NCBI GenBank assembly: GCA_003552565.1
Contig: PUNB01000062.1
Coordinates: 1-40,606 of the forward strand
Direction: 5' to 3'
Source of the DNA: Lentisphaerota bacterium
GTDB lineage: Bacteria; Verrucomicrobiota; Lentisphaeria; Oligosphaerales; PUNB01
DNA length: 40,606 bases
A program made the translations under genes and the position numbers. How positions within the stretch are numbered: position 1 is the first letter of the stretch; every line of letters starts with the position of its first letter. The notes below the pieces were generated by a model. It did not search any database. It had not been told where the DNA came from and worked only from the letters and a program-made list of their open reading frames with translations. Below are positions 138 through 40,606 of this stretch, piece by piece.

Positions 138-367
138 GTCTCTCCCTCGGGGTATCCGGCGCTTCGCGCCGGCGGTTGGACTTGTATGGGACTTCGTCTC
201 GGTGATCGGTTATCAATCATCCGAGTACCGTAATCGTACACGTACTCGTACACTCAAATCTTCGGGGTCAGAAATAATGACGATTAGCGTGACGAGTATG
301 TGTAAAAGTACGTAGAGTCTCACCCTTCGGGTTTCAGGCGCATCGCGCCGGGAGCGGTTCTTGTATG
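138..367. repeat. Mosaic repeat cluster: core palindromic element (138-195), GTACGAGTAC-type hairpin (about 215-316), second core element (317-367)
   Basis: About 90% identical by eye to 39802-40054 in the same orientation. The core is 'GTCTCTCCCTCGGGGTATCCGGCGCTTCGCGCCGGCGG..GG.CTT.TATG.GAC'. Confidence 0.9.
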
Positions 368-3376: not shown

Positions 3377-4225
3377 ATGCCAAACACAGAACAAAAAAAG
3401 CTGCATGAACTTATATCGCGACATGTGGAAAAACTGCCGCCGATGCCAAATTCAATTGACCGGCTTCTAAGGGAAGCCGCCAATCCAGATCGCAACGAAG
3501 AAAATATAAAAGCCATCATAAAAAGTGATCCGGGACTGTGTTCTGAACTACTGCATCTGGCGGCCTGCGAAGTTCATGACAGATCCAAGGCGGCCGAAAC
3601 TCTGGATGAAGCAATAGCCCAGACCAGTCTTGATTACCTGATTGACCTGGCGGGCACCTCTTATCTCAGCCAGACCATCGAACAACAGTTCAGCGCTATG
3701 GAAAGACTGGATGAGTATTTCCGCCATTCCCGCGAGATCGCCGCCACTTGTCCTATCCTGGCCGATCTGATTGAATTGCCCAAGCATGATCGACAATTCT
3801 ATGAAATGGCCGGTGTCCTGCACGACATGGGCAGACTGATCATCGGACTGGCCCGCAACCAAACAGGCATAACCCTGATGGGGCCGGATCTAAAACAAAT
3901 GACAACCATCACGGATTACGAAAAAAACGTTATCGGCCTGAATCATTGCGAAGTCGGAGCCGATATATGCCGCAAATGGAACCTTTCAGAAAAGCTGCGC
4001 GAAGCGGTGGCAAGACACCACAGCCCTATTTTAGGGGAAGATAATTTCAGCTTCTCCGGCTCCATTCTTTTCCTGGCCCATTTCGTCGCTGGCGATGACT
4101 TCACCGGCGAAATCATCGCCCAGATAATTCCGGAAAGCCTTTTCGAACGGCTCGGATTGAACATGGAACTGTTTGATCAGGCCAAACAATTATATCGAGA
4201 ACAAACAAACAGGAAATACGCATAA
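3377..4225 (+). CDS. HDOD domain-containing signalling protein
   Basis: 282 aa. It has an N-terminal 'LPPMPNSIDRLL....IKAIIKSDPGLCSELLHLA' block, followed by 'HDMGRL' and 'LNHCEVGADICRKWNL...HH', as in HDOD (HD-related output) domains. Confidence 0.75.
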   Translation: MPNTEQKKLHELISRHVEKLPPMPNSIDRLLREAANPDRNEENIKAIIKSDPGLCSELLHLAACEVHDRSKAAETLDEAIAQTSLDYLIDLAGTSYLSQTIEQQFSAMERLDEYFRHSREIAATCPILADLIELPKHDRQFYEMAGVLHDMGRLIIGLARNQTGITLMGPDLKQMTTITDYEKNVIGLNHCEVGADICRKWNLSEKLREAVARHHSPILGEDNFSFSGSILFLAHFVAGDDFTGEIIAQIIPESLFERLGLNMELFDQAKQLYREQTNRKYA

Positions 4226-4226
4226 A

Positions 4227-4763
4227 ATGGCAGAGATCATTAAAGGAAAAGCCTACGTAGTGGGCGACAACATCGACACCGATCAGATTATCCCGGCTCA
4301 ATATCTGAACCTGGTGCCTACCATCCGGGAAGAGTATGACAAACTCGGAAGTTACGCCCTCTCAGGACTGCCGGAGGGCTATCCCCACTTCGTTCCCCCC
4401 GGCCAGACGAAAACCCCCTACAAGGTAATTTTTGCCGGGCGCAATTTCGGCTGCGGCTCCAGCCGGGAACACGCTCCGGTTTGCCTGGGAGCCGCCGGCG
4501 CCCGAGCAGTCGTTGCTGAATCCTTCGCTCGGATTTTTTTCCGCAACTGTATCGCCACCGGTGAATTATATCCGATTGACGCAACCGAACGTCTATGTGA
4601 AATGATCAAAACCGGAGAAGACGTGGAACTGGACCTTGAACAAAACACTCTGAGAATCCCCGCCCGCAACATAACCATTGAAACCCAGCCATTGGGAGAT
4701 GCCCGTCAGGTAATCGAGCACGGCGGGCTGTTTAACCACGCCAGAAAGACCGGTATGATCTAA
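4227..4763 (+). CDS. leuD: 3-isopropylmalate dehydratase small subunit-like protein (short LeuD/HacB type of the aconitase family)
   Basis: 'MAEIIKGKAYVVGDNIDTDQIIPAQYL' and 'AGRNFGCGSSREHAP' are aconitase swivel-domain motifs. I chose the ATG at 4227 (the track ORF begins at 4173) because the homology starts there and it immediately follows the upstream stop at 4225. Confidence 0.85.
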   Translation: MAEIIKGKAYVVGDNIDTDQIIPAQYLNLVPTIREEYDKLGSYALSGLPEGYPHFVPPGQTKTPYKVIFAGRNFGCGSSREHAPVCLGAAGARAVVAESFARIFFRNCIATGELYPIDATERLCEMIKTGEDVELDLEQNTLRIPARNITIETQPLGDARQVIEHGGLFNHARKTGMI

Positions 4764-4819
4764 AGAAAAGAACTGTACCGCGGTTGAGCAAGCGGATATT
4801 GCTAAAGCAGTACGGGACT

Positions 4820-5383
4820 GCGGAAACCTGAAAGCTGAAGGCTGAGGAAAAGCGGGAAACTCGCTGGTCGCAAGTCATAATCCGTATCTTTAATATGTAA
4901 TGCGTAATGGATGGGACGGCGGGGGGAGAGGAATGTATCATAGTGTGTAAGTCGCTGGTCGCGTGTCGCTAGTCATAATTCTTGATCTATAATGCGCAAT
5001 GGATGGAACTACGAGACTGCAATTTTATGAGGCCTGTGGAAGTTTCTATTAAAAATTACACAAGCGTCCCATGGGATGCGTTACTACACTTTGTCTCGCA
5101 CCTTGTCTCGCACTTTGTCCAACTGCCTTCTCAAAACCAAACAAGTACTCGACAAGGCGCGAGACAAAGTGCGAGACTAGGTTTCATTTTATGTGCGTGT
5201 AATGGCCTCACACCCCTTTTCGCATACCCTCTAGTTACGGCTCGACATGCGAGAACGGTGTACGAGTTGGCGCAATCGTAATCCGCTCTCGTCACCCGCT
5301 AATAACGACGAACGAAGCACGATGAACGACGAACCGTGTTTCGAACAAGCCCGACCCTTGGCGCAAGGCCGAAAAGGAACCGG
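4820..5383. repeat. Mosaic repeat cluster with several module types
   Basis: It contains a ~55-bp direct duplication (4861-4915 and 4952-5007), a CGAGACAAGG-type hairpin (5089-5183) and a 'CTTTTCGCATACCCTCTAG' module (5213-5236). An AACGACGAACGAAG module (5301-5342) is identical over 42 nt to 39150-39191. A degenerate core element abuts the ribD stop. Confidence 0.85.
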
Positions 5384-14473: not shown

Positions 14474-14492
14474 AAAAGACGGCCTTGCGGAA

Positions 14493-14677
14493 GTTTGCAC
14501 CGCGCGGGCGTTCGCCGCCCTTGTCTCCTCGTTACCGCGCGGATGCTTGGCCCCACTGGCTCTTCGTTGCCGCAGTTACCGCACGGGTGCCCGCCGGCCC
14601 TTAGGTCCCATTACCGCACGGGCACTCCTCACCCTGTTACCGCGCGGGCGTATTATTACGCCTTATTACGCCCGGCC
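14493..14677. repeat. Degenerate ~33-35-bp tandem array (core GTTACCGCGCGGGCG) ending in a GGCGTA-TTAT-TACGCC hairpin
   Basis: Five to six units are visible. It has the same orientation and the same terminal unit ('GTTACCGCGCGGGCGTATTATTACGCC') as the array at 16462-16742. Confidence 0.85.
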
Positions 14678-16405
14678 AGACGCCCGATCACACACCCGGC
14701 CCCTCGCCGGAACGGCTCCCAGCGGCCATCGCCCCCGAGGTTGATAATGACCGAAAAGAATGTCCGCCGCGGCCGCCAGCCCTTCATCGCGGGTTTGAAA
14801 AGTCATCAGCACCGCGTCCGCCTGATTGTCAACCCAAGGTGGATACGGTGTATTGGTTAAACTGACCACCGGCAGGCCGTGACCTTTCACCGCCCGAATC
14901 AATTCCGCGTTGTTTTCCTGGCTGCGAGCCGCCCAGTCAGTGACCGCTACAAGATCAAAACCAGGTTCAAAACGTTCCATGGTTCTTCTGATCTCATCCT
15001 CCGACGGATGCCATGAAATCGGCAAGTGCAGGATATTGCCGCTGTAAGCCATCAGCTTCTCCAGCAGCATGCCGTTGTGAACATATAAATCATCAGCCTG
15101 CATGCCGGTAAGACTATCGCAGAACTGCTCAATCAGAATAATCCGCGCCCCCTGAGGCAATGGCAGCAGCTCGGAGTTAAAACGAGCATAATTCGCCCCT
15201 TCATAAGCTAGGTCGCGAGCAGTGCTGACCACCTCCGGTTCGAAGACCGCCTTCGCCGCCTCTTTCGGTTCGGCTTTAGGCTTGTCAAAGATGCCGTACT
15301 CCATTTTCATTGACAGCAGACGACGATTGGCCTCATCCAGCCTGGATTCCGGCAAATCGCCGCGCCGAACCGCCTCGATAATGGCACTGTGAACCTGGCG
15401 GCATAAATTGTTCTCGGCTTTCATCAGAACCACATCAGCTCCCGCCGCCAATGCCCGCCAACAGGCTTCGGGTATCGGATGAAGCTGAGATATACCCTCC
15501 ATTTCCATGTTATCGGTTGTCACCACACCATCAAAACCAAGTTCACCGCGCAGAAAATCAGTAATAATAGCCGAACTGAGAGTCGCCGGCCGCCCTGAAG
15601 AATCAAGCGCCGGAAAAGCCGTATGCGCCAGCATGATGCTCGACAGCCATTGGCGGCCGCCCGTATATGGCAGTATTTCCCGTTCCATCAACAGTTTTTT
15701 TGAAACATCTATTGAAGTTACGGCATGGTGGGCATCCTGATCACTGTCCCCGCGCCCGGGAAAATGCTTGGCGCTGCCGATCACCCCCTCTTCGCGCAAA
15801 CCCTGCAGGAAAGCCGCTCCGTAATCCTTGCAGACCTCGGCTCTATCACTGAACGCCCGCCATCCGATCTCCGGATTCCTCCAATTGCTGTTGACATCCA
15901 GCACCGGAGAATTAACCCAGTGGATGCCCACCGCCCGCTGCTGTCTGGCCATGGCACGAGCGGCTCGATAAGCGCTGTCCGGTGAGCCGCAGGCTGTCAG
16001 TCCGACCTGGGACGGCATGAAACGAACACCACCCATGCAATAATTTGAAGACCGATCACCTTCCTGGTCACCAACGAAATGCAGGGGGATGGAATGCTCC
16101 CGGGCCAGCGCCAGATCCTGCAACTGATTTAGAACTTCGGCGTACTGTCCGGGCGAAGCGTAAGGAGCCGCCCGCCGCCAGCCATCGCGGGTCTCGCCGA
16201 CAACGCTCTGAGTCAACCGCAAACCGCCGCAATGTAATTTCTGAACCTGCTCATACACCAGCGGATACAGAGTTGTTCCGTTGAAACACAAAGTCAAAAC
16301 CTGACCCGCTTTCTGTTCCAAGCTCATACGAGACACCAGTTCCATCGCCGCTTTCTCCACTGTCGAACGATCCCTGATTAAATTTTTCTTAGCCTCCATA
16401 TACAA
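14666..16405 (-). CDS. Glycoside hydrolase family 3 protein (NagZ / beta-hexosaminidase-like, with C-terminal domain)
   Basis: 'LEQKAGQVL' and 'KHFPGRGDSDQDAHH' are GH3 N-domain signatures. The last ~10 codons and the TAA stop (14666-14668) lie inside a repeat array. Confidence 0.88.
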   Translation of the reverse strand: MYMEAKKNLIRDRSTVEKAAMELVSRMSLEQKAGQVLTLCFNGTTLYPLVYEQVQKLHCGGLRLTQSVVGETRDGWRRAAPYASPGQYAEVLNQLQDLALAREHSIPLHFVGDQEGDRSSNYCMGGVRFMPSQVGLTACGSPDSAYRAARAMARQQRAVGIHWVNSPVLDVNSNWRNPEIGWRAFSDRAEVCKDYGAAFLQGLREEGVIGSAKHFPGRGDSDQDAHHAVTSIDVSKKLLMEREILPYTGGRQWLSSIMLAHTAFPALDSSGRPATLSSAIITDFLRGELGFDGVVTTDNMEMEGISQLHPIPEACWRALAAGADVVLMKAENNLCRQVHSAIIEAVRRGDLPESRLDEANRRLLSMKMEYGIFDKPKAEPKEAAKAVFEPEVVSTARDLAYEGANYARFNSELLPLPQGARIILIEQFCDSLTGMQADDLYVHNGMLLEKLMAYSGNILHLPISWHPSEDEIRRTMERFEPGFDLVAVTDWAARSQENNAELIRAVKGHGLPVVSLTNTPYPPWVDNQADAVLMTFQTRDEGLAAAADILFGHYQPRGRWPLGAVPARGRVCDRASGRA

Positions 16406-16461: not shown

Positions 16462-16742
16462 CCGCTCGTTTACCCCGCTGTTATAGCATGGGGGCTTTTT
16501 CCGCCCGAGCGCTCGCCACCCTTGGCCCCTCGTTACCGCGCGACCGTTCGCCGCCCTTGGCCCCTCGTTACCGGGCGGGCGTTCGCCGCCCTTGCCCCAG
16601 TTTCCGCGCAGGCGTTCGCCGCCCTTGGCCCCTCGTTACCGGGCGGGCGTTCGCCGCCCTTGCCCCAGTTTCCACGCGGGCATTCGCCGCCCTTGGTCCA
16701 GTTACCGCGCGGGCGTATTATTACGCCCGGCTTCACGCCCGG
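16462..16742. repeat. Tandem array with alternating 35/33-bp units (68-bp higher-order period)
   Basis: The 'GTTCGCCGCCC' phase markers fall at 16511, 16546, 16581, 16614, 16649 and 16682. Alternating A units end in '...CTTGGCCCCTCGTTACCGGGCGGGC' and B units in '...CTTGCCCCAGTTTCCGCGCAGGC'. All frames are open because of the repeat. Confidence 0.9.
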
Positions 16743-25967: not shown

Positions 25968-26654
25968 ATGAACACGCGCACCGATGAAATCAAGCAGCGG
26001 GCAGCGACATTATTGAAACACATTGAAGAACTTGCCGCCAATCAACAACATGGAAGCGGCCAGGTGCGGCTGATCGCGGTTACCAAAACACGTCCGGTTG
26101 CAACCATTAAAGCCGCGTACAACGCCGGACTGAAGTGTTTCGGAGAAAACCGAGTACAGGAACTGGCAGAAAAAGCTCCCAGCCTGCCTTCTGATATTGA
26201 ATGGCACATGATCGGCCATTTGCAGCGCAATAAAGTACGGCACGCGGTGCGGCTCTCCGCCTGCATACATTCGGTTGACTCGCTAGAGCTGCTCCATCGG
26301 ATCGACCGCGTGGCGGGAGAGGAAAGCCGACATCCCGCCATTCTTTTACAAATAAACCTGTCAGGAGAAGACACCAAGAGCGGGGCGTCCCCCGAGGAAG
26401 GAACACTTTTGGCAACAGCAGCGTTGAACTGTCGCAATCTGCAGTGTAAAGGCCTGATGACAATGGCTCCCTATCACGCAGGAGAAGAAGAACTGCATGA
26501 TATTTTTGCCGGTTTGCGAAAACTGCGGGACCGAATCGCTTCAGAAACAGACCTGGATCTGCCGGAACTTTCGATGGGAATGTCAAACGACTATGAAGCA
26601 GCCATTGCGGAAGGCGCCACCATGGTGCGCATCGGCAGCGCGCTCTTTGGATAG
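25968..26654 (+). CDS. yggS: YggS-family pyridoxal-phosphate homeostasis protein
   Basis: 'LIAVTKTRP' (PLP lysine), 'FGENRVQE', 'HMIGHLQRNK' and 'SMGMSNDYE..I..G.T.VRIGSALFG'. Confidence 0.92.
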   Translation: MNTRTDEIKQRAATLLKHIEELAANQQHGSGQVRLIAVTKTRPVATIKAAYNAGLKCFGENRVQELAEKAPSLPSDIEWHMIGHLQRNKVRHAVRLSACIHSVDSLELLHRIDRVAGEESRHPAILLQINLSGEDTKSGASPEEGTLLATAALNCRNLQCKGLMTMAPYHAGEEELHDIFAGLRKLRDRIASETDLDLPELSMGMSNDYEAAIAEGATMVRIGSALFG

Positions 26655-27325
26655 AGGGTATACGAAAAGGGTTCGAGGCTTGATTTTGTGCTAACCTTGT
26701 CCCGAACCTTGTCACGCACCTTGTCGCATACGCCTCAGGCGGATCGCACACCTTGTCCCAAACTCTGACCCTATCCGTGTTATAATCCGTGGTTCTAAAA
26801 AAACGGCTCTACAGGAAATCCCAAGTGTAATGTGTTAAAGAGATTCGAGTGTACGAGTACGTGTACGAGTACGGGAAGCGCTGCATCGTCATACGGTTTC
26901 GTACTCGTACACCTACTCGTACACGCAAATCTTTCGATTCCTGCCTGCTACCCCGAGGGAGAGACTTATTTAATGGTTTCTGGTGTCAGGTGTCAAGTCC
27001 TGACTAAAAGTTGACACCTTATTAATAGCTAGACCCCATGCGAAAAGGTGTATGCAGTCTCTACACGCACAAGAAAAATAAAACTTTGTCTCGCACCTAG
27101 TCTGGTTTTCTGTCGATTCCTCATTTTTCAGACTAAGTGCGAGACAAGGTGCGAGACTAGATGGGCACAAAATGCCCTGACACCTGAACACTGAAACCTG
27201 AAACCAAGAAGTCTCACATAAGCCCCGCCATCGGCGCGAAGCACGCCGGATACCCCGAGGGAGAAACATCGAACATTGAACACCGAACATTGATCGACGA
27301 ACGAAGAACCGTGTTTCACATAAGC
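26653..27325. repeat. Mosaic repeat cluster (~670 bp) between convergent yggS and the DUF4168 gene
   Basis: Modules in order are a CGAAAAGG module, four ACCTTGTC units with an inserted CCTCAGGCGG hairpin, and 'TCCGTGGTTCTAAAAAAA'. Next come the GTGTACGAGTAC hairpin (26849-26924), a CACCTGA module and a CATGCGAAAAGG module. The cluster ends with a CGAGACAAGG hairpin (27083-27160), a CACCTGAACACTGAAACCTGAAACC module, a core element (27211-27267) and a CGACGAACGAAG module. Confidence 0.9.
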
Positions 27326-27341
27326 TAATTAGCTGGATAAA

Positions 27342-28112
27342 CTATTCCATCGGCTGCACCGGAACCTCCTGCTGCTGCTGGGGCTCGGGCTGCGGTGATT
27401 CCGCTTCAATAATTTCCAGAAAATCATCCTGCAACTCCAGATCGTACTGCAAAAGCTCCATGATTTTTTCATAACGGTCTAGCCCCATACCGACCGCTTC
27501 GGCTTTTTCTTCCAAGGTTTTTTCCGCTTCCTCGATTATACTCTGAACGGCGGCCTCGTCTTCAACCCCGGCTAAATTCTGCTGTAGATTCTGACGCAGC
27601 TGCTGCAGTTCAATAAAAACTTCCGCCGTCTGGTCCAGCTCACCATCCGCCAAATCTTCACCGGTCAATTCCGGTTCGCCTCTGACCAGCAGAAGAAATT
27701 CACGCTGCAGCTCCCGCTCCTGCTCAATCGCCTGCATGATCTGCTCGTGCTCCTGCAATGAAATACCGGCCTCTTCGGCAACTGCTTCCAGCTCTTCCTC
27801 AGCCTTGGCGATTCGTTCCTGAACCACTTGCTGATCCTCAACACCAATCAGTTCTTCCTGCAATTCCTGGTTCAGCTCTTCTGCCTTCTGCTGAACCATG
27901 GCGGCCGCCTCCAGTTTCTCCTGATCGACATCTTCAGGATCCATGGCCGGCGCTTGCGGCATCATTTGCGGCGCCTGCTGGGGTGCTTGCTGCGGAGCCT
28001 GCTGCGGCTGTTGTGCCCTAACACCAAGATTCAAACCGAATGCACAGACAACAAAGCCGCTGATGGCGCCGACAATAATCTTTTCTTTGGATAGATTCAT
28101 AATACTTTTCAT
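27342..28112 (-). CDS. Secreted protein with two DUF4168-like repeats
   Basis: Signal/transmembrane segment and a PQQA-rich linker, followed by two copies of a ~90-aa E/Q-rich unit ('...AEE.GISLQEHEQIMQAIEQERELQREF' and '...AEAVGMGLDRYEKIMELLQYDLELQDDF') resembling DUF4168. Confidence 0.55.
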   Translation of the reverse strand: MKSIMNLSKEKIIVGAISGFVVCAFGLNLGVRAQQPQQAPQQAPQQAPQMMPQAPAMDPEDVDQEKLEAAAMVQQKAEELNQELQEELIGVEDQQVVQERIAKAEEELEAVAEEAGISLQEHEQIMQAIEQERELQREFLLLVRGEPELTGEDLADGELDQTAEVFIELQQLRQNLQQNLAGVEDEAAVQSIIEEAEKTLEEKAEAVGMGLDRYEKIMELLQYDLELQDDFLEIIEAESPQPEPQQQQEVPVQPME

Positions 28113-34523: not shown

Positions 34524-35285
34524 ATGCCCAGAGCATCTAGATATCTGAAAGAAGGGTACCTTTACCATCTGACGCATCGCTGTTCGGACGGTGAATTCTT
34601 TCTTCGCTTCGCCAGAGAACGGGACGCTTACCGTGAGTGGCTGCGTACAGGGGTTAATCGTTATAAGGTCTCAGTGCTAGGATATGCAATCACCTGTAAT
34701 CACACTCATGTGGTTGTCGATGCAACTGATCGGTCCGCTGTGGCCGACATGATGAAATTGGCTTCAGGAGTCGTCGCTCAATCCCTGAATCAGCGCAAAG
34801 GACATGAAGGCTCTGTGTGGGAACACCCTTACCAGTGTACTCGCATAGAGAGTGGTGCTCATCTTCTTAATTGTCTGCGTTACATCGACCTAAACATGGT
34901 CCGGGCAAGAAAGACGGAACACCCGGGTCAATGGCGCTGGTGCGGATATGACGAACTTGTCGGAAAACGCAGGCGCTACCGGATAATCGACCAAGAACGA
35001 TTGTTGGCGCTTGCAGGATTCGCTTCCAGTCGTGCTTTTGCCGAGTATTATGCGACCAGTGTCAGCGACAAACTGGAACGGCATCGCCAAGTACGGGAAC
35101 CTTATTGGACAGAAGCGGTTGCGGTTGGCAGTAAGGAGTTTGTCGAAGATGCCGGGGAAGCCGTTGCTCATCGGCGGCGGATGCATCATTATAAAATCGA
35201 CATTGAAGCTGAGGAGAACTTGTGGGTCGTTCGGGAATCATCTGTCCCTTACAGCTCTGCTTTTGGGGATAAATCAGCCTTCTAA
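34524..35285 (+). CDS. rayT: REP-associated tyrosine transposase-like protein (Y1 HUH transposase, IS200/IS605 TnpA superfamily)
   Basis: The 253-aa size is typical of RAYTs. The HUH motif is 'NHTHVVV' (H60-T-H62) and the catalytic Tyr context is 'LRYIDLNMVRA' (Y120). There is no tnpB partner and no IS terminal structure nearby. Confidence 0.75.
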   Translation: MPRASRYLKEGYLYHLTHRCSDGEFFLRFARERDAYREWLRTGVNRYKVSVLGYAITCNHTHVVVDATDRSAVADMMKLASGVVAQSLNQRKGHEGSVWEHPYQCTRIESGAHLLNCLRYIDLNMVRARKTEHPGQWRWCGYDELVGKRRRYRIIDQERLLALAGFASSRAFAEYYATSVSDKLERHRQVREPYWTEAVAVGSKEFVEDAGEAVAHRRRMHHYKIDIEAEENLWVVRESSVPYSSAFGDKSAF

Positions 35286-39801: not shown

Positions 39802-40527
39802 GCTTATGTGAGACTTCGTCTCGGTGATCGGTTATCAGTCATCCGAGTGCCGTACTCGTACACGTACTCGTACACTCAAATCTCCGGGGTCAGAAATAAT
39901 GACGATTAGCGTATACGAGTACGTGTAAAAGTACGTAGAGTCTCTCCCTCGGGGTATCCGGCGCTTCGCTCCGGCGGTCGAGATGGTGGCCGGAGCTTCC
40001 AGCTCCGGATTGTCAGGCGCATCGCGCCGGCGGCCGGGCTTATGTGAGACTTCGCGTTGTTAACCTTGTCCCGAATCCGCCTCAGGCGGATCACAAACCT
40101 GATTCCAAAGCCTAAAAACACTAGACAAGGTGCGAGACAAGGTGCGAGACAAGGTTTATTATGCCGCAACAGTCTCTACCTCAGGGTATCAGGCGCCTCG
40201 CGCCGGCGGTCGGGCTTATGTGAAACACGGTTCGTCGTTGTTCGTTTTATATCAGTGTTAATCAGTGTCCATCCGTGGTTCTAATAAAAAAATTGCGGCG
40301 TGAATGAGGACAGATTTAAGTGTACGAGTACGTGTACGAGTACGGGAAATGCTGCGGTATCGTTATACGGTTTCGTACTCGTACACCTACTCGTACACGC
40401 AAATCTTTCGTATCCTGCCTGCTGCCCCGAGGGAGAGACTTGTTGAATGTGTCACCTGAACACTGAAACCTGAAACCGCGAAGTCTCACATAAGCCCTAC
40501 CGCCGGCGCGCGGCGCCTGATACCCCG
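39802..40527. repeat. Densest mosaic repeat cluster (~725 bp, no credible CDS)
   Basis: Module order is a core tail, a GTACGAGTAC hairpin, a core doublet with a CCGGAGCTTCCAGCTCCGG insert (39939-40053) and a 12-nt-periodic hairpin (40063-40156). Then follow a core (about 40165-40222), a CGACGAACG module, a TCCGTGGTTCTAATAAAAAAA module, a GTGTACGAGTAC hairpin (40320-40398), a CACCTGAACACTGAAACC module and a core (40473-40527). Confidence 0.9.
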
Positions 40528-40606
40528 TAGAAGAAACAGGGAACACTAATAATGAATTTTGAATTCTGAATTCTGAATGTTGAGTTTCGGACAGACCAGA
40601 CAGTTC

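Follow-up and report, generated by a model that had tools for sequence, protein, structure and literature searches.

Intergenic hairpin repeats built of hexamer arrays in a PVC-group genome, and their probable descent from a PF05635 gene cassette

Hairpin repeats in the window and across the genome

The stretch of DNA analysed here (the window) is the whole of the 40.6-kb contig C237, 40,606 nt long, of a 2.09-Mb assembly from uncultured PVC-group bacteria that comprises 275 contigs and is 86% complete. It carries four copies of a hairpin repeat whose arms are tandem arrays of a 12-nt unit, GTGTACGAGTAC; two of these are fold-backs of a class that we call type A, and two are composites of type B (Table 1). 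When up to one mismatch is allowed, the window contains 13 matches to the unit, where 0.03 would be expected, and double-unit matches number 58 in the whole genome against none for a reversed control pattern, which excludes chance as the source of these units.

Table 1. Hairpin repeats and associated features in the window, with the sites of the outer inverted repeat elsewhere
Feature	Position	Strand	Parts	Basis
Type-B composite, first	181..321	+	left part: CTTGTATGGGACTTCG junction, then small hairpin TCTCGGTGATCGG..CATCCGAG; inside-out arms 228-253 (GTACTCGTACAC type) and 289-312 (GTGTAC type, 1-nt deletion); spacer with CAAATCT/GATTAGC end motifs; then TAGAGTCTC leading into core	sequence; one of 20 copies at 92-99% identity; boundaries by flank alignment
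Left flank common to type-A copies	26776..26839	+		flank comparison
Type-A fold-back, copy 1	26840..26933	.	end motif GAGATTCGA; left arm 26849-26874 (2 x GTGTACGAGTAC + GG); loop 26875-26899 (25 nt); right arm 26900-26924; end motif GCAAATCT	sequence, fold; one of ten type-A copies in the genome
Truncated core module, reverse complement of AAGTCTCTCCCTCGGGG...	26934..26967	-		flank alignment, families D8/D12
Type-B composite, second	39803..39944	+	arms 39850-39875 and 39911-39935; then core at 39939-39985	family D9, 94% identity to 181-290; flank alignment
Type-A fold-back, copy 2	40312..40407	.	end motif AGATTTAA; left arm 40320-40345; 28-nt loop; right arm 40374-40398; end motif GCAAATCT	sequence, fold, D12 identity
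Truncated core module 3' of type-A copy 2	40408..40441	-		sequence, flank alignment
TGAATTYTGAAT array	40553..40590	.	alphabet of the arms of the genome's own PF05635 gene on contig C109; one of about 130 such arrays in the genome	
Outer inverted repeat, other sites	L114:3878-3895 and 4903-4927; L067:1306-1330 and 1778-1802; type-C right flanks of this genome			

The initial annotation had described the first type-A copy as a left arm of two 12-mers followed by a loop of about 25 nt, and the sequence reads in just that way. The near-identical second copy that it listed is 92% identical to the first over 96 nt (family D12), and both are indeed followed by a common sequence, GCAAATCT and then about 35 nt (TTCG.ATCCTGCCTGCT.CCCCGAGGGAGAGACTT). 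A variant placed near 215-316 and 39845-39938 was found at 228-312 and 39850-39935, and it has the opposite topology, with the GTACTCGTACAC-type arm first and the AGATTTG end motif turned toward the loop.

The type-A folds range from -54.7 to -61 kcal/mol (z = -5.3 to -7.0), with values of -54.7/-61 kcal/mol (z = -5.5/-7.0) for copy 1 (26849-26924) and -57.6/-57.3 kcal/mol for copy 2 (40320-40398). When the AGATT end motif is counted, the stems in the window comprise about 34 pairs and contain one or two mismatches, so that terminal inverted repeats form one long, near-perfect stem. The loops or spacers of all four copies measure 25-35 nt and contain no PF05635/TIGR02436 ORF. Elsewhere in the window, tandem arrays of 33-35-nt GC-rich units (family D1; 14491-14637 and 16492-16697) lie around the gene at 14666-16405 and are unrelated to the hairpin family.

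In the genome as a whole, 55 loci contain a GTGTACGAGTAC unit, and 46 of them are clear fold-backs. They fall into five subfamilies that have in common the arms and a non-periodic end motif, AGATYNNN, and that have unrelated interiors: type A (10 copies, loop of 25-28 nt), type B (20 copies, 92-99% identical, inside-out topology), type C (6 copies, interior of 130-190 nt), type D (about 10 copies) and type E (3 copies). The high identity among the type-B copies bears on a suggestion of the initial annotation, that such hairpins arose by a common generative mechanism rather than by simple copying of one element; within this family, such copying did occur.

None of the 46 fold-back loci lies inside a credible ORF. 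All are situated between protein-coding genes, and the gaps that contain them are enlarged, with a median length of 528 nt as compared to 95 nt genome-wide. The setting is strongly mosaic: 13-mers that are present five or more times account for about 9.7% of all bases in the assembly and for 41% of the intergenic ones. Every type-B copy is fused to a REP-like core, with CTTATGTGAGACTTCG on its left and a core ending in the same 16-mer on its right, and a truncated core is fused to the right of eight of the ten type-A copies. No target duplications were found at the boundaries of types A, B, C and D. For the interiors of types A, B and D, and likewise for the core, no match was found among 143 external loci, which argues that the three subfamilies multiplied within this lineage, probably as components of larger mosaic repeats.

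Two further observations concern the same setting. Half of the fold-back loci (23 of 46) are no more than a few hundred bases away from a contig end; the repeats are thus a main cause of assembly fragmentation, and the hairpins are probably under-counted in the assembly. Type-D hairpins on contigs C35, C47, C73, C118, C244 and C256 sit between direct 13-mer arrays (CACACTTCGTCCC, up to about 7 copies), and type-D hairpins also lie near GACTAGC heptamer arrays, a further layer of the mosaic structure.

A six-nucleotide register in the arms

The 12-mer is a dimer of two hexamers, GTGTAC and GAGTAC. Arm length varies between copies by one unit, on each side independently, and also by half units of 6 nt; since 6-nt as well as 12-nt steps occur, the elementary period is the hexamer GWGTAC. 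More generally, the arm is an array of GWGTAN hexamers whose unit number varies both between copies and between genomes, with differences of 6 and 12 nt.

The expectation that arm periodicity would always be 12 nt therefore does not hold, the register being 6 nt here and 6, 7 or 8 nt in related cassettes (see below). Nor is a period of 12 nt preferred genome-wide. Among 1650 short tandem arrays detected by TRF, period 7 is the richest (473 arrays against 34 in shuffled sequence), followed by period 12 (349 against 22), period 9 (222 against 39), period 13 (123 against 10) and period 6 (97 against 9). The period-12 signal comes mainly from two families, CGAGACAAGGTG with 182 arrays and GTGTACGAGTAC with 48, in a count that underestimates arms of fewer than two units. 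Two further modules that had been assigned the same hairpin logic, CTGAAAC and AACGACG, proved to be heptamer arrays that are mostly unpaired and do not form hairpins.

Arm conservation was assessed in 85 arm pairs from this and other genomes of several phyla. Hexamer positions 1-5 are kept in at least 82-85 of the 85 pairs in most columns of both arms, and variation is concentrated at positions 6, 12, 18 and 24, that is, at every sixth base; in the fourth hexamer, positions 19 and 21 vary as well. The sixth position is free even at the cost of a mismatch in the stem. At position 12, for example, 27 pairs are C/C, 18 are G/G and 40 are mismatched, and the 45 matched pairs represent a modest excess over the approximately 33 expected. 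We considered covariation as a proof of structure and rejected it: a switch from C:G to G:C is seen at position 12 only, where the pairs are often mismatched, and the modest compensation there gives weak support to selection for pairing as such. If pairing were the only constraint, compensated changes should appear anywhere along the arm. The register of five fixed positions and one free one instead suggests that the arms are under sequence-specific reading rather than under selection for mere pairing. In a comparison of seven full-length elements (see below), identity is 86% in the arms, as against 67% (nucleotide) and 61% (amino acid) in the ORF between them; among these aligned sequences, the arms are thus shown to evolve more slowly than the ORF.

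Full-length cassettes and their shortened derivatives

A pattern search for the arms in 40 relatives found them in a genome of the same family (G002, see below), and a scan of 185,579 species genomes found the exact 24-nt arm in at least 114 stretches from genomes of several phyla, namely Kiritimatiellia, Victivallales, Lentisphaerae, Verrucomicrobia and Planctomycetes, along with a few Gemmatimonadetes and deltaproteobacterial genomes. The copies in other genomes are mostly gene-less and occur in both topologies. At least 15 elements, however, are full-length: seven loci from the genome scan and eight metagenome loci found with the protein, hosted by Victivallales, Verrucomicrobia, Lentisphaerales and Kiritimatiellia genomes as well as by metagenomes. 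Here the arms are about 810 nt apart and enclose a single ORF of 249-263 aa with two PF05635/TIGR02436 domains, the only cargo between the arms in these roughly 15 elements. The association also holds in the other direction, in that all homologues of the ORF with at least 50% identity (about 15) lie within GTGTACGAGTAC-type arms. A PDB sequence search with the two-domain ORF gave no match.

An outer inverted repeat, GGGTCTTCCGCAGAATCTGTGGGTC / GACCCACAGATTCTGCGGAAGACCC, encloses the full-length cassettes, at a distance from the hairpin of about 125 nt on the upstream side and about 45 nt on the downstream side (Table 1), and is conserved between genomes. The left flanks of the type-A copies carry a piece of this outer repeat as AATCTGTGGGTAG, which is degenerate in the flank of copy 1; the match of the type-A left flank to the outer repeat of a full-length locus (L114, with its ORF at 4052-4810) was reached by none of 200 shuffles. 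Judged from these alignments, the arms in the window, including their non-periodic AGATTTGN end motif, are shown to be homologous to the arms of the full-length cassettes. Considering that the loops in the window hold no ORF and that relatives with the same arms do, the window copies are derivatives and not full members of the cassette family. In one metagenome contig (L054, Ga0315283_10374926), the full-length cassette at 59-1475 is preceded by two gene-less mini-hairpins and followed by one; these mini-hairpins have the same arms as the cassette, which indicates that the elements cluster in tandem.

Intermediates between the full-length and the gene-less forms were found both in this genome and elsewhere. 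In a genome of the same family (G002), 412 nt separate the arms, and the ORF between them matches PF05635 (47.9 bits) and contains one in-frame TAG; this pseudogene is an internal-deletion derivative, recombinant between the two domains. In the present assembly, a tblastn search with the full-length ORF detected no full-length cassette or cognate ORF, only fragments, which were present in all six type-C loci. When aligned to the G002 element (alignment A1), three of the six type-C copies keep just the 5' and 3' ends of the ORF, with different breakpoints, and three external loci (L067, L068 and L188) have independent internal deletions of the ORF. Across these alignments, a series of independent internal deletions is shown to have produced shortened forms. 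The loops of types A, B, D and E hold no ORF remnant, and so for these types descent by deletion is inferred from the shared arms, end motifs and flanks.

The best explanation, to which we assign a probability of roughly 0.7, is that the GTGTACGAGTAC hairpins are inverted arms orphaned from a hairpin-enclosed gene cassette with a two-domain PF05635 ORF; the link between gene and arms is in itself well supported. [quoted passage not shown] The arms would serve as periodic arrays that are recognized by their sequence, most plausibly by the protein of the cassette itself, and their unit number would drift through replication slippage. They would also form a stem of 24-35 bp which, if transcribed, is a putative substrate for RNase III by analogy with the stems of ORF-bearing intervening sequences (IVSs) in 23S rRNA; the genome does encode an RNase III. 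Its copies of the hairpin are probably non-autonomous. The lineage-private subfamilies A, B and D would have been amplified within larger mosaic repeats joined to the REP-like core, by a mechanism that leaves no target duplication. A point against this explanation is that, as no full-length cassette or cognate ORF is found in the assembly, it contains nothing that could mobilise the copies in trans; only the missing 14% of the genome might supply it.

Could the hairpins instead be older and independent of the gene, with the PF05635 gene a passenger that settles in their loops and types A, B, D and E as empty sites? Gene-less hairpins do outnumber gene-bearing ones in every genome sampled, and the remnant-free loops of these four types are also mutually unrelated; both points favour such a landing pad. 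The independent ORF deletions in type C and in the three external loci argue otherwise, however, since they demonstrate that decay yields short forms. In addition, type A retains part of the outer repeat that surrounds full-length elements, and the protein clade is found only within this arm type, although this last fact implies a specific partnership under either reading. Overall, we consider a landing pad unlikely.

PF05635 genes, known elements and remaining alternatives

The PF05635/TIGR02436 group, to which S23p of rRNA IVSs and relatives of the DGR factor Avd belong, is very common, and to our knowledge its proteins have no assigned function outside DGRs; we likewise know of no explanation for the dispersed tandem repeats of 6-8-nt units in bacterial intergenic DNA. 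Within the order studied here, the two are often found together. PF05635 genes occur in 36 of 41 genomes, and about 22 of the 32 loci with usable flanks have significant inverted arms of tandem units, about 15-250 nt from the matched part of the gene. The units are 6, 7 or 8 nt long, and each gene has its own unit sequence, often with a two-unit higher order; close relatives of the two-domain protein have hexamer arms of TCGTAA, CGTTGT, CTCGTG and CTTCCK. The five PF05635 genes of the genome itself have arms of GGGACTGC, TTCTGAAT, TAATTCG and CCACT-type units, and such alphabets are also dispersed as arrays (about 130 of the TGAATTY type, 13 of GGGACTRC and 9 of AATTACG). We found no description in the literature of PF05635 genes that are generally bracketed by inverted tandem-unit arms, or of gene-less derivatives of such loci.

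These results bear on the proposal that several repeat families share one design written in different alphabets. The idea of a preferred periodicity fails, and yet the shared architecture has a real basis in the PF05635 cassettes, each with arms of its own unit. The proposal could not be extended to the CGAGACAAGGTG family, for which no PF05635 partner was found in 12 sampled loci.

An alternative explanation for the spread of the hairpins, one that we regard as somewhat less probable again than a landing pad, is that they are REP/REPIN-like elements moved in trans by one of the Y1 (RAYT-type) transposases of the genome, acting on single-stranded hairpins. Like REP, REPIN and BIME elements that are associated with RAYT genes, the hairpins are high-copy, intergenic and mosaic, and they are joined to a REP-like GC hairpin core; the lack of target duplications fits HUH enzymes; and the genome has five Y1_Tnp matches, one of them in the window. 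This last gene (34524-35285, + strand) encodes 253 aa that match PF01797 with 31 bits and NCBIfam REP_Tyr_transpos with 54.8 bits, below the 80-bit cut-off. It is solitary and lies between AT-rich flanks, neither of which carries a repeat module, whereas three other Y1 genes (on C197, C33 and C121) are each bracketed by their own REP-like repeat (TTACCCATTTCGCGCATGG, CTGTCGCTCCGCCGGGACAAGCCCGAC and GGAGGGCGAGCGTCCCCGCGAGCC). No GWGTAC arms were found around any of the five matches, and a RAYT link was rejected, as the repeats next to the five genes, where there are any, belong to other families. The arms themselves also differ from REP sequences: they are tandem arrays in a 6-nt register, and in many genomes they enclose a PF05635 ORF and not a Y1 gene. 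The unit is, moreover, a fold-back of 70-125 nt whose stem of 24-35 bp, built of repeats, is far longer than the stems of typical REPs. Retro-mobility by means of the genome's own reverse transcriptase is likewise unsupported, since no such gene is present in the assembly.

It is quite improbable that the hairpins are host cis-acting RNA elements (terminators, attenuators or small RNAs) kept for gene regulation, as their great stability and intergenic location might suggest. Searches of the window with Rfam (at gathering scores) and for tRNAs gave no match, nor was there any match to rRNA, and a terminator scan of 26600-27400 returned no terminator-like site; no T-run follows the right arm, where the sequence reads GCAAATCTTTCG. 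Types A, B and C have no orientation bias with respect to neighbouring genes, the proportions of gene contexts at the hairpin loci equal the genome baseline, with no bias toward convergent genes, and the loops are not conserved between subfamilies. Least probable of all is that they are classical MITEs, shortened by deletion from an insertion sequence that has a DDE transposase and the same terminal inverted repeats, because, for all their conserved arms, variable interiors and high copy number, target-site duplications occur at no inspected boundary and no arm pair in this genome or in 80 external loci encloses a transposase, the sole cargo seen being the PF05635 ORF.

The cassette reading does nonetheless share one feature with MITEs, namely internal-deletion derivatives that keep the terminal inverted repeats of a gene-bearing element and form subfamilies differing in their interiors; the parent element here has no transposase. 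For the cassette itself, ORF-bearing IVSs in 23S rRNA are the obvious comparison, and these are known from Leptospira, Brucella and the Xanthomonas-type S23p as well. The nearest published case that we found is the 23S rRNA IVS of Coxiella burnetii, which contains an S23p ORF and a 28-bp stem with a variable number of tandem GACAGAT heptamers; RNase III cleaves inside this stem, and the ORF is prone to reductive decay (PMC4990558). Both kinds of element place a PF05635-family ORF within a long stem of terminal inverted repeats with variable tandem units. The elements described here differ in being intergenic rather than in an rRNA helix (helix 25 or 45), in having a hexamer unit with a two-hexamer higher order and an ORF that encodes a fused two-domain protein, and in having arms that persist and multiply without the ORF, at about 50 loci in one genome and in two topologies. 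The hairpins are best explained as a new variant of IVS-type element, with MITE-like decay and amplification. Dispersed repeats in Xanthomonas and Nostoc (GGGAATC / GGGGAYT) are also abundant tandem units of 6-9 nt in variable number in the non-coding DNA between genes; they have been interpreted as G-quadruplex formers, with no gene family named (PMC4692102). The repeats of the present genome do not consist of G-tracts; they come in inverted pairs and can be traced to a PF05635 cassette.

If the cassette reading is correct, one abundant repeat family becomes tied to a long-orphan protein family, with a decay series in a single genome that runs from ORF-remnant forms to bare hairpins amplified about fifty-fold. 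It would also suggest where some of the mosaic repeats, which occupy about 41% of the organism's intergenic DNA, came from, and it puts at hand a candidate pair of a defined protein and a defined 6-nt site. A bolder proposal, which we put forward tentatively and consider possible but doubtful, is that the two-domain PF05635 protein reads GWGTAN in register, and that protein and arms together constitute a self-propagating hairpin element without a known recombinase. In that case, each domain may recognize one hexamer type (GTGTA or GAGTA), and this would account for the higher order of 12 nt; the orphan hairpins, roughly 50 in this genome, would be what is left of a burst whose gene has since been lost; and the orphan family, including Avd and S23p, might have a general function in binding its own flanking repeat arrays.

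The inside-out topology of type B falls outside what decay of a cassette explains. In one external case, the inside-out form is a junction between two tandem cassettes. In the left part of both type-B copies in the window (210-229 and 39832-39851), ATCAGTCATCCGAG matches the reverse complement of the 3' end of the cassette ORF at 13 of 14 positions, a match equalled by 3 of 200 shuffles, and it pairs as a small hairpin with CTCGGTGA directly upstream; this similarity may be a trace of how the inside-out form arose. Another type-B copy (C245:333-445) has three changes in its left outer unit, CGTACTTTTACAC, which as a result is a perfect complement of the right outer unit, GTGTAAAAGTACG, itself degenerate; these changes look like the product of templated correction from arm to arm.
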